DNA of 64,000 nucleotides. Origin: Bacteroidaceae bacterium. GTDB taxonomy: Bacteria > Bacteroidota > Bacteroidia > Bacteroidales > Bacteroidaceae. The stretch lies in assembly GCA_017379075.1 (NCBI GenBank), contig JAFNXL010000034.1:1591-65590 (forward strand), in the 5' to 3' direction. This document shows, piece after piece, positions 20,771 through 31,431 of this stretch (within the stretch, counting starts at the first letter, position 1; each line of letters opens with the position of its first letter). The position numbers were made by a program, and so were the translations under genes. The notes beneath the pieces are model-generated. The model was not told the DNA's origin and did not search any database. It worked only from the letters and a program-made list of their open reading frames with translations.

Positions 20771-21907
20771 TTAACTATTATTACCGTCCAACAACATCAA
20801 TCCTTTTAACGTCAGCAAATAGCGTTGACGGGGATGATGGGGATTGGCAGGATACTTCATACACACAAATCCTTCTCTAATTGCTGGTGCGAGAGAATAA
20901 TCCATAAAGTTCGGACGGTTCTTCAAACCTACAGCCTCCATCATGCTCTTCACACTCATTTCTTCTTTACCGATTGCCAATACCAAACGCCTTACATTCT
21001 CAGAAGAAGGTTGTATGTCGATTGAACTTGCATGGGTACTTGTACGGGTACTTGTATGGGTGTCGTTCTCGTCATCCTTATACCCAATCAGCATATATCG
21101 ATTCTTCAGTTCGTTGTTTTCACCGAGCAGCAAATTACGGAAAAACTTTACGAGGAAGGACTTGTCTGGCTGTATGCCTTTCTGGGGATTACTATAATTG
21201 GCACGGACAAGGGCATTACGGAAGTACCAGGAATTATCAGCGAACAATTCGTTATTTACATTGAAACCACAAGAACGGAGATATTTGATAACGAAAACAG
21301 CAGTTGTTCGCGTGTTTCCTTCACGGAACGGATGGTTCTGCCATAATAAAGTCACAAAGTCCACAACATGTGAGATAATCTCATCTGTAGTCAAGCCTTT
21401 ATAACTGAAATCTCGTTCAGTCTGTATGTCATATTTTAATGCTTCATGAATGTCTGCTGCACGACCATATACAACTGTATCGCCTTGCAATACCCATTCT
21501 TTTTTGCTGATGTCATAGGGACGAATCTCACCTGCATGCTTAAAGACGCCCTCAAATAGATGACGATGGATGTTCAAAAACTCTAAAGGAGTCAATGAAA
21601 ATGACTTTTCATTCAGCAACTTCGTGATGTTTGCCGCCACGCGGTCAGCCTCTTCCTTTTCAGCATCGTCAGCATCATGTGTAGTCTTATTCACATAATA
21701 AGATTGTATCTGTTCTCTCACCTCATCGATGGTGATGTCACCCTCAATGTGCTTTACTGCTATTTCCTTCAGATAGTCAGACACACGAAGCCCATCTACG
21801 TCTTGAAGTCCTATTGCAGTACGCCAAGCCGAGACCCGCTCACGTTTATGTGGCTCTGCCACACGTTCGTAAGCCTCAAAGTCAATATATTTCTGTTCTT
21901 CGTTCAT
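20771..21907 (-). CDS. Fic-domain protein with a non-canonical active-site motif and a C-terminal winged-helix-like tail
   Basis: 378 aa. The motif HPFREGNTRTTA replaces the canonical HxFx(D/E)GNGRxxR. The N-terminus is VbhA-like (AIGLQDVDGL...IEGDITIDEV). The gene starts 5 nt after the jetD stop. Confidence 0.8.
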   Translation of the reverse strand: MNEEQKYIDFEAYERVAEPHKRERVSAWRTAIGLQDVDGLRVSDYLKEIAVKHIEGDITIDEVREQIQSYYVNKTTHDADDAEKEEADRVAANITKLLNEKSFSLTPLEFLNIHRHLFEGVFKHAGEIRPYDISKKEWVLQGDTVVYGRAADIHEALKYDIQTERDFSYKGLTTDEIISHVVDFVTLLWQNHPFREGNTRTTAVFVIKYLRSCGFNVNNELFADNSWYFRNALVRANYSNPQKGIQPDKSFLVKFFRNLLLGENNELKNRYMLIGYKDDENDTHTSTRTSTHASSIDIQPSSENVRRLVLAIGKEEMSVKSMMEAVGLKNRPNFMDYSLAPAIREGFVCMKYPANPHHPRQRYLLTLKGLMLLDGNNS

Positions 21908-21912
21908 ATTCT

Positions 21913-22773
21913 TTATTTTTTTGTCTTGATATATCCCTCCTGGTCATATCCTTTGTGGTGCAAGTGGATGCTGTCTAATAGAGGTTGTACTCTTTTGTCT
22001 TCAATCTTCATTTTACCGTATTGAGGCAACTGAACATTATAGCGTTCTGTATTCCCATTCGAAATCCTTTGATCAAAATCATCTGGTATGAATAATGATG
22101 ATTTATTTCCCAAGTGGTGGTAATACTCACTCTCATAAATGGCGATACCGGCCAAATCTAAATCTCCAAAATGGACGTATTGATTAGGTATGGACTGTAG
22201 CCATTTTATAAGATCTTTATTTTGGTTTTGAGGATAACGGGATACGAAAAGTACGCGTCCATATCGCGCAAAGAGATGTTTCTGTAATGCGACATATCGG
22301 AAATTCTCTGCGTTCTCCACTCCAACTACGACAACATCCTGCGGAATGGTGAAATGCTGATAGTCGGCAATGAACATGAAACAGCCTTCTGTGGGATGAA
22401 TTATTATCTCTTGTCCGTTGAGGACAGCAGTAACAGGCTGATAGCTATTTACAAGAAACCCAGTGAAAGTTCTACGTGAAAGGAACTTACTGTCGCCAGT
22501 GACAGCCACCAAAGAGGCTCTGCTGGCATCTTCATCAGAGAAGGCTTTCCGTGTTTGTTCCAGGTCGTAGATGTCGTACTGACTAGCAACATACCGGCGG
22601 AGAGACATTCCGTCTATTGCCCTCAGACTCTTGCGGCTGCCGTGTGTTGTAGCCAGAAGGATGCCGTCTTCCTGCATCTGTTCAAACCAGTCGCCCTTCA
22701 GGCTGCTGGCTGGCAGGACGTCGCCATTGGCCAGCCGAATCAGTTTCTCTATGAGTATGGCAGTCTTTTTCAT
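21913..22773 (-). CDS. jetD: Wadjet JetD-like Toprim (DUF2220-type) nuclease subunit, short form
   Basis: 286 aa. Toprim-like Glu (VVVGVENAENF) and DxD (HFGDLDLAGIAIYE). Its start overlaps the jetC stop by 4 nt. Confidence 0.7.
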   Translation of the reverse strand: MKKTAILIEKLIRLANGDVLPASSLKGDWFEQMQEDGILLATTHGSRKSLRAIDGMSLRRYVASQYDIYDLEQTRKAFSDEDASRASLVAVTGDSKFLSRRTFTGFLVNSYQPVTAVLNGQEIIIHPTEGCFMFIADYQHFTIPQDVVVVGVENAENFRYVALQKHLFARYGRVLFVSRYPQNQNKDLIKWLQSIPNQYVHFGDLDLAGIAIYESEYYHHLGNKSSLFIPDDFDQRISNGNTERYNVQLPQYGKMKIEDKRVQPLLDSIHLHHKGYDQEGYIKTKK

Positions 22774-31060: not shown

Positions 31061-31207
31061 TTATCCAATTATCATTGATTCTACTTTTCTTTTTGCTTCC
31101 TCCAATAAGACTTTGCCTATTTTAACAAAGGCATCGCCTTTCTTGAAACGAACTACAGGTTTTGAATCTATTTTATCCATAGATACTGTTGCTATTAATT
31201 TTGTCAT
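31061..31207 (-). CDS. Candidate small ORF (48 aa, or 39 aa from the internal ATG at 31180), below the ORF-track cutoff
   Basis: Hand translation: MTKLIATVSMDKIDSKPVVRFKKGDAFVKIGKVLLEEAKRKVESMIIG*. The TAA stop at 31061-31063 lies 3 nt before the DUF4393 ATG. The ORF fills the XRE-DUF4393 gap. Confidence 0.3.
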   Translation of the reverse strand: MTKLIATVSMDKIDSKPVVRFKKGDAFVKIGKVLLEEAKRKVESMIIG

Positions 31208-31215
31208 AATCTCGC

Positions 31216-31431
31216 CTATTTTACATGACTGAATTCTTCCTGTCTCACCAACTCCTGCACAGGCACTTCAAGCGCATTTGCAATAGCTAAGAGTGTTTCA
31301 AGGCTGGGTTGGGTGGTGTTTGTTACCCATTTGGATATAGTTGCCTGATCCTTTCCCAACTTATCCGCCAACCACTTGTTGTTTAGGTCACGTTCTGCAA
31401 GAACAACTCTTATACGATTTAACTTTGCCAT
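31216..31431 (-). CDS. XRE-family helix-turn-helix transcriptional regulator
   Basis: 71 aa from MAKLNRIRVVLAERDL. HTH segment LADKLGKDQATISKWVTNTTQPSLETLLAIANAL. The start was chosen because of the -7 box at 31455-31462. Confidence 0.8.
   Translation of the reverse strand: MAKLNRIRVVLAERDLNNKWLADKLGKDQATISKWVTNTTQPSLETLLAIANALEVPVQELVRQEEFSHVK

Follow-up and report, generated by a model that had tools for sequence, protein, structure and literature searches.

Does a run of closely packed, co-oriented defence genes work as one system, or do its members share only a stretch of DNA? The question is raised by a 64,000-nucleotide (nt) stretch from a Bacteroidaceae bacterium (GenBank assembly GCA_017379075.1, contig JAFNXL010000034.1, positions 1,591 to 65,590), which we call the window. 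Here nine co-oriented open reading frames (ORFs), all on the minus strand, follow one another from position 31431 down to 20771 (Table 1): a gene for an XRE-type helix-turn-helix (HTH) regulator, a small ORF, Abi_alpha (DUF4393), a GmrSD-like gene, four genes resembling jetA, jetB, jetC and jetD of the Wadjet system, and fic. The original prediction for this array was that its three nominally independent defence modules and the Fic enzyme are co-transcribed under the XRE regulator and are functionally coupled. If coupling were true, abortive infection, type IV restriction, SMC-based plasmid restriction and Fic would form one machine; the evidence shows a modular island instead. On the whole, we consider it likely that the array is a mosaic of independent, exchangeable defence modules, probably read through, which share regulation without sharing a mechanism.

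The comparison set consists of 80 GTDB genome loci with a jetD-like gene and flanks of 10 kb, which were searched with all proteins of the window (locus labels begin with L); the flanking genes of the 80 loci were clustered, and the recurrent clusters annotated. The closest relatives are Prevotellaceae/Bacteroidales metagenome-assembled genomes. Only identical copies of the locus have the full set of modules; these come from several metagenome assemblies, all of the same strain, and the order DUF4393, GmrSD, jetABCD and fic recurs in none of the 80 related loci. The A-B-C-D core with its tight junctions is conserved down to 35-45% identity. Its flanks are hypervariable, with 244 protein clusters among about 390 flanking genes, and include PtuA-like ATPases, YhcG, RhuM, a PLD-helicase type IV enzyme, HNH, a HIT-methyltransferase and housekeeping genes; in about 60 loci jetABCD has unrelated neighbours. 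Only sub-pairs recur, namely Abi_alpha-GmrSD, GmrSD-jetABCD and jet-Fic, each either confined to a narrow clade or with an order and orientation that vary. Our comparison demonstrates self-sufficient modules, each of which exists elsewhere in the absence of the rest. The genes occur elsewhere essentially only in shuffled or independent combinations, the outcome that speaks against the proposed functional coupling.

The individual modules show this one by one. GmrSD adjoins jetA only in the closest clade among the 80 loci (L001-3, 6, 7, 10 and 11); in L004 and L005 only its final ~60 codons are left, and L008 lacks it, with JetA in these loci 93-99% identical. Abi_alpha is absent from all 80 jet loci; the slot next to jet is occupied there by YhcG, by an XRE gene, or by a 129-aa (amino acid) protein together with a PtuA-like ATPase. 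Elsewhere, Abi_alpha homologues of 38-86% identity belong to type I or type IIG restriction-modification (RM) operons or to other islands: downstream of a type I hsdR in L091, within a type I RM operon in L095/96, together with GmrSD appended to a type IIG-like operon in L097/98, as an Abi_alpha-GmrSD pair on its own in L093/94, and in other islands in L099-L104. Homologues of the window-type Fic are located within 10 kb of jetD in 13 of the 80 loci, in several orders and orientations. The fic ORF is intact in the window; in 9 of the 13 jet-associated loci Fic is internally deleted, truncated or frameshifted, and jetABCD is full length wherever present.

The limits of nucleotide homology fall at gene boundaries. 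The GmrSD ATG is where homology to the window begins in L001-3, 6, 7, 10 and 11; in L013, L017 and L032 it begins at the jetA ATG and in L066 at the XRE ATG. It stops at the GmrSD stop codon in L093 and at the fic stop codon in L052. In addition, the G+C content at third codon positions (GC3) changes stepwise by module along the array (0.43, 0.22, 0.22, 0.42, 0.46-0.58 and 0.42), with 0.64-0.67 for the host genes. Breakpoints at boundaries together with GC3 steps are the signature of what appear to be independently acquired cassettes.

The close packing that gave rise to the idea of coupling can be read in the same way. Recomputation reproduced exactly every junction distance on which the original prediction was based (Table 1), and its family assignments for XRE, Abi_alpha, GmrSD (both N- and C-terminal parts) and Fic were upheld by Pfam and PADLOC scans. 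Overlapping start and stop codons are found only among the jet genes, in line with their being subunits of one complex, and the junctions between blocks are small positive gaps; the pattern of overlaps and gaps already marks the functional units of the array. Among 61 related loci scored for packing, which have a full jet core and scorable flanks, an unrelated co-oriented gene lies within 25 nt of the jet core in about 11-14 loci on each side. As about one fifth of loci are equally tight, close packing is a general habit of these islands and not special to this one.

Such an arrangement is known from other islands. Payne et al. (bioRxiv 10.1101/2024.01.29.577857) describe larger systems with defence genes embedded in them, GmrSD-like ones among others; the orientation is the same in 96.7% of cases, and co-regulation is proposed; the idea of same-orientation embedding as a route to co-regulation is thus already published and not new. 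Like the embedded-gene islands (Payne et al. 2024; PADLOC HEC/PDC), the array has unrelated defence genes that are co-oriented and abutting, with variable partners, and its HEC-06-type GmrSD, Abi_alpha PDC-S47 and Fic PDC-S72 are typical passengers. It differs in that the host is a Wadjet-like SMC operon and not Hma, BREX, DISARM or type I RM, and in that the passengers flank the core on either end and are not inserted into it. The array is a modular defence island with co-oriented passengers, ordinary though tidy.

The core is predicted to be a compact and divergent Wadjet-like system. The jetC-like product, a MukB-like SMC ATPase of 1219 aa, matches Pfam DUF3584 over residues 18-1190 (1.2e-63; 215.6 bits, cutoff 31) and has the Walker A motif GTQGVGKST and the Walker B motif CMMDE. 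The jetB-like KITE protein (183 aa) matches Pfam MksE over its full length (5.9e-40; 137.7 bits, cutoff 27) and has no PADLOC JetB match. For the jetA-like protein (397 aa) no sequence match is found in Pfam, PADLOC, NCBIfam or PDB, profiles included. PDB sequence searches with JetD, JetC and JetA, again including profiles, gave no meaningful matches, and therefore a comparison of folds was needed. The AlphaFold2 model of JetA, which was built from an alignment of distant representatives and not from the 88-99% identical sequences, has a predicted local distance difference test score (pLDDT) of 80 and has a winged helix at either terminus, with a helical bundle and then a disordered linker in between. 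Its top 11 Foldseek matches in PDB are all MukF or E. coli JetA (for example 9gm7_C at 1.7e-4 and 8q72_E at 1.2e-3), and we predict JetA to be a MukF-type kleisin, recognised by its modelled fold only. The jetD-like protein (286 aa) reaches Pfam DUF7281 at the cutoff, JetD_C with 17 bits against a cutoff of 22, and PADLOC JetD weakly; its acidic residues E153/E156 and D204-x-D206 are invariant in 22 homologues. The best folds for its model (pLDDT 84) are Spo11/Topo VI-A (2e-4) and P. aeruginosa JetD (7til_B, 2.8e-3), which points to a compact winged-helix plus Toprim nuclease.

The PADLOC Wadjet models match only residues 1-63 of jetC (1.7e-6) and about 75 residues of jetD (1e-6), and neither jetA nor jetB. 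The name JetABCD given at first thus holds for the SMC, KITE, kleisin and Toprim components, which are recognised, but not for a known type: the curated Wadjet hidden Markov models (types I-III) give fragmentary matches only. For this reason we file the predicted system as Wadjet-like, a divergent subtype, and do not assign it to type I, II or III. With type I Wadjet, that is JetABCD/MksBEFG of E. coli GF4-3, P. aeruginosa PA14 and C. glutamicum, it has in common the order kleisin-KITE-SMC-Toprim with overlapping junctions, a full-length DUF3584 JetC, an MksE/KITE JetB, a MukF/JetA fold, and a Topo VI-A/JetD fold with the Toprim acidic residues. Unlike type I Wadjet, its sequences are too divergent for the PADLOC Wadjet models or a PDB sequence match, its JetA is in no Pfam family, and its JetD belongs to DUF7281 and not to JetD_C and is shorter than the 374 residues in 7til_B; some homologues of the window JetD carry a C-terminal NUDIX domain.

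The compact Wadjet-like family is large and abundant in Bacteroidales, with 4953 clusters of JetD-like proteins (90% identity) and 415 representatives of JetA-like proteins (50% identity). A C-terminal NUDIX fusion to JetD is found in 15 of the 120 top homologue clusters (including P0012 and P0020). In the literature on DUF7281 and on Wadjet in Bacteroides/Prevotella we found no description of this family. The PADLOC models miss it, and anti-plasmid immunity in gut and rumen Bacteroidales may therefore be under-counted; the family could also contribute to the poor genetic tractability of these organisms. We regard this divergent family and its NUDIX fusions as the most interesting part of the locus. 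JetD-like genes also occur as orphans. In L012 (9890-11242) a JetD-NUDIX gene stands without jetABC, beside a jetC remnant of only 35 aa; it follows a Fic+HTH_11 gene, different from the window Fic, and a VapE-like primase gene is also present there. Two further orphans (L019:10001-10870 and L039:10001-10879) lie among glycerate kinase and carboxylesterase housekeeping genes, with no jetABC within 10 kb.

The GmrSD-like protein (693 aa) joins DUF262 and DUF1524: both Pfam GmrSD_N (2.9e-36) and GmrSD_C (5.6e-26) are above cutoff, PADLOC matches are Orf5 (1e-160) and HEC-06 (1e-65), and the motifs IIDGQQR (DGQQR) and IEHIMP (EHIxP, HNH-like) are present in one polypeptide. By these features it is predicted to be a GmrSD-family type IV restriction enzyme. 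It resembles the GmrSD add-ons BrxU in BREX, SspE in Ssp and HEC-06 in Hma in having DUF262 and DUF1524 with DGQQR and EHIxP and in lying beside another defence system. It differs from them in its Wadjet-like neighbour, in a C-terminal extension of ~130 aa beyond the PADLOC model, and in being dispensable for the retention of the neighbouring system. The Abi_alpha-GmrSD pair is located at 30266-28173 (-) in the window, at L093:6001-8882 and at L097:5001-7888, with GmrSD 94% identical between them; its three contexts are standalone, after a type IIG-like RM operon, and ahead of jet. The pair may be a mobile two-gene cassette. In the closest relatives (L001:376-2517, with equivalents in L002, L003, L006, L010 and L011) the 129-aa protein, which has no family match, lies 2 nt from GmrSD and is often preceded, 9 nt away, by the PtuA-like ABC ATPase; the slot upstream of GmrSD is there another tightly packed array of different content.

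Abi_alpha (DUF4393, PF14337) matches Pfam Abi_alpha at 6.8e-44 and PADLOC PDC-S47 at 5e-82 over its full length, and is by these matches a candidate single-gene defence. The family is also found in type I RM operons, where homologues of 47% identity are located between hsdS/DUF4145 and hsdR with gaps of 7-10 nt; the difference is that in the window the gene follows XRE and the candidate small ORF and precedes GmrSD. Fic (378 aa) has a Fic domain above the Pfam cutoff, a VbhA-like N-terminal segment and Fic-like_C, and corresponds to the PADLOC candidate PDC-S72. Its motif HPFREGNTRTTA, compared with HxFx(D/E)GN(G/K)RxxR, has the core H, F, E, G, N and R, but T stands at the G/K position and A replaces the last R. 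The protein is a putative Fic enzyme and, like Abi_alpha, a candidate single-gene defence. The XRE/Cro-C1-type HTH regulator (71 aa) matches Pfam HTH_3 at 2.7e-12, and its PADLOC matches are defence-operon regulators (PDC-M64C, capH and the N-terminus of RmrA). Same-strand XRE homologues are found upstream of jet arrays in 8 related loci, immediately before jetA in L064/L065. Small ORFs just upstream of jetA in other loci were considered as hidden regulators and rejected, as they look spurious and real XRE homologues are found in only 8 loci. The 48-aa candidate ORF of the window has no family match, and the only homologues detected come from identical copies of the locus. Over its last ~45 nt it matches the conserved leader that precedes Abi_alpha in L091/L093, two loci that lack an equivalent ORF, and its GC3 (0.22) equals that of Abi_alpha.

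How the modules would be expressed and what they would do can be outlined from their spacing and families. By its sequence, the array is plausible as a single transcription unit from the XRE promoter to the hairpin after fic. A candidate Bacteroidota -7 promoter box, TATCTTTG, is confirmed upstream of XRE (Table 1); the longest XRE ORF extends to 31476, and the box falls within that extension. The lack of an internal terminator hairpin holds as well: within the array we found no stem-loop of at least 9 base pairs (bp) with a short loop, nor any composite promoter on the coding strand. The inter-module gaps of 3-18 nt are too short for a Bacteroidota -33/-7 promoter. The hairpin after fic is without a U-tract; its centroid structure is the hairpin alone, and the sequence flanking it is conserved in L001 and L011. 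An Rfam search of the whole window detected a distant tRNA-Gly only, with no leader or non-coding RNA in the array. The claim that no TAnnTTTG box lies inside the array was mistaken, since five coding-strand matches are present (at 20924, 22153, 23666, 27109 and 30512). They are about at chance level (shuffle mean ~3 per 10.7 kb of single strand); over the whole window such boxes are enriched, with 56 matches against 38.9 expected. A scan for sigma-70 promoters and intrinsic terminators was discarded, its counts being equal to the shuffled expectation and its consensus wrong for Bacteroidota.

Given the tight spacing, the genes would be read as one or few polycistronic mRNAs, from the XRE promoter to the post-fic hairpin, and co-transcription would yield shared regulation, not shared mechanism. 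Each module most likely works alone. GmrSD would be a modification-dependent nuclease, and the jet block, by analogy with the established Wadjet mechanism (PMC10586767), a loop-extruding SMC complex which activates a Toprim nuclease on circular foreign DNA. The array may have arisen by cassette swapping at a hotspot next to dnaK; for example, an Abi_alpha-GmrSD pair may have been joined to a GmrSD-jetABCD-fic array via the shared GmrSD. If so, the array shows in a clear case how cassettes are exchanged precisely at gene boundaries, at a dnaK-adjacent hotspot in gut Prevotellaceae.

Several observations weigh against this mosaic. The GmrSD-jetA spacer is kept at 17-20 nt in six loci (it is 56 nt in a seventh, L010), and the 11-nt spacer between Abi_alpha and GmrSD is identical in three contexts; some sub-pairs recur more than one might expect from a purely random model. 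Fic stands beside jet in both orders, with gaps of 5 nt after jetD in the window and before jetA in L017. A crossover inside GmrSD, looked for between the Abi-GmrSD-type and the GmrSD-jet-type relatives, is not apparent: the identity profile is mosaic, with no clear switch. The fold matches of the core have low TM-scores (0.2-0.4) owing to flexible multi-domain models, and, as the JetD-NUDIX fusions demonstrate, physical coupling of accessory enzymes to the JetD nuclease can occur. Lastly, the five single TAnnTTTG boxes could be internal promoters, and further promoters could be buried in upstream coding sequence.

The last point leads to the alternative that survives best, namely that the modules are independent in transcription too, each with its own promoter in the 3' end of the preceding gene, and that the spacing is a result of deletional compaction. 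Single coding-strand boxes are located 145-258 nt upstream of jetB, fic and GmrSD (27109, 22153 and 30512, respectively). The variants that have lost GmrSD (L004, L005 and L008) keep its last 34-190 nt upstream of jetA, which could carry a jet promoter, and the Abi_alpha module of L093 has 430 nt of non-coding sequence in front of it, presumably with a promoter of its own. Yet the number of boxes is at chance level, a TTTG element 15-25 nt upstream (the -33 partner) is found at none of the five, the 22153 box follows from the conserved GDLDLAG codons of jetD, the modules are not set apart by any hairpin, and embedded defence genes are generally thought to be co-expressed (bioRxiv 10.1101/2024.01.29.577857). 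We hold fully separate transcription to be somewhat doubtful.

Clearly less probable is a partial coupling, in which the gene abutting jetD or jetA (Fic in the window and in L017, the NUDIX fusion elsewhere) modulates or backs up the JetD nuclease and the rest is only co-located. The NUDIX domain in 15 of 120 clusters, the Fic-domain gene 3 nt upstream of the orphan JetD-NUDIX in L012, the 5-nt gaps between Fic and jet on either side, and the 13 loci with a window-type Fic near jetD in several arrangements are in accordance with it. Set against these are the decay of Fic in 9 of the 13 beside an intact jet wherever jet is present, the roughly 80% of jet loci without any Fic homologue, and the coincidence, in several loci, of Fic adjacency with the shared dnaK hotspot. 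Moreover, genes of the Fic/RhuM type are as common beside unrelated systems, being present in 3 of the 7 distinct Abi_alpha contexts (L091, L095 and L103), and their base rate in these islands is therefore high. A combination of both ideas, a Wadjet-like core with genuine end slots that tune or back up JetD, inside a 10.7-kb array that is as a whole one XRE-gated transcript, would make a modular "defence supra-operon" with cassettes exchanged at exact gene boundaries; we give it only a slim chance. Finally, the original prediction of one integrated XRE-controlled system, with mutually dependent or regulating modules, for example layered sensing and effector steps, could appeal to the uniform orientation, the gaps of at most 18 nt without an internal hairpin, the XRE gene at the head (with homologues upstream of jet in 8 related loci) and the identical array in several metagenomes, though of the same strain, but is very unlikely and largely refuted by the comparative data: the full combination is confined to identical copies (0 of 80 related loci), every module also occurs apart from the rest, GmrSD and Fic decay next to an intact jet, and the breakpoints at gene boundaries and compositional steps point to separate origins.

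Table 1. Features of the array in the window, with the distances between neighbouring genes (negative values are overlaps)
Feature	Position	Strand	Distance	Basis or remark
XRE	31216-31431	-		ORF table
Small ORF	31061-31207	-		ORF table
Abi_alpha/DUF4393	30266-31057	-		ORF table
GmrSD	28173-30254	-		ORF table
jetA-like	26961-28154	-		ORF table
jetB-like	26413-26964	-		ORF table
jetC-like	22770-26429	-		ORF table
jetD-like	21913-22773	-		ORF table
fic	20771-21907	-		ORF table
Junction XRE/small ORF			+8 nt	Recomputed from coordinates
Junction small ORF/Abi_alpha			+3 nt	Recomputed
Junction Abi_alpha/GmrSD			+11 nt	Recomputed
Junction GmrSD/jetA			+18 nt	Recomputed
Junction jetA/jetB			-4 nt	Recomputed
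Junction jetB/jetC			-17 nt	Recomputed
Junction jetC/jetD			-4 nt	Recomputed
Junction jetD/fic			+5 nt	Recomputed
Candidate Bacteroidota -7 promoter box TATCTTTG	31455-31462	-	23 nt upstream of XRE ATG (31431)	Motif match only
Hairpin, perfect 11-bp stem, 5-nt loop	20702-20728	-	43 nt after fic stop	Candidate terminator of array

The array lies in a low-GC segment of the window of roughly 15 kb (~19.9-34.8 kb, GC 0.33-0.46 against ~0.52 in the flanks), with recA and dnaK at one border and a sulfatase gene at the other, in a Prevotellaceae/Bacteroidales chromosome. No integrase or tRNA gene was found at the island borders, and a search for direct repeats or att-like sequences flanking the array gave chance-level short matches only. 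The dnaK gene (17990-20445 in the window) adjoins a jet/Fic island also in L001, L002, L005, L006 and L017, and the orientation of the island relative to dnaK differs between L017 and the window, which suggests that integration or recombination recurs at a hotspot beside dnaK. Besides the array, the island carries DUF6078, a divergent PDC-M29A-like ABC ATPase with its partner, and Vsr. The gene for the Vsr-type mismatch endonuclease is at the island edge (34298-34780, -), and a cognate cytosine methyltransferase gene was not noticed nearby. The ABC ATPase (429 aa) overlaps by 11 nt with its partner of 200 aa, which has no family match (32006-33887, +), and the two are probably a further two-gene candidate defence system, divergently transcribed from the array. 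The divergent genes for XRE (-) and the ABC ATPase (+) are separated by 574 nt, and in this region there is a perfect 22-bp inverted repeat with a 9-nt loop (31724-31776), which is unique in the window and found elsewhere only in copies from the same strain; it may serve as an operator or a bidirectional terminator, or be a remnant.

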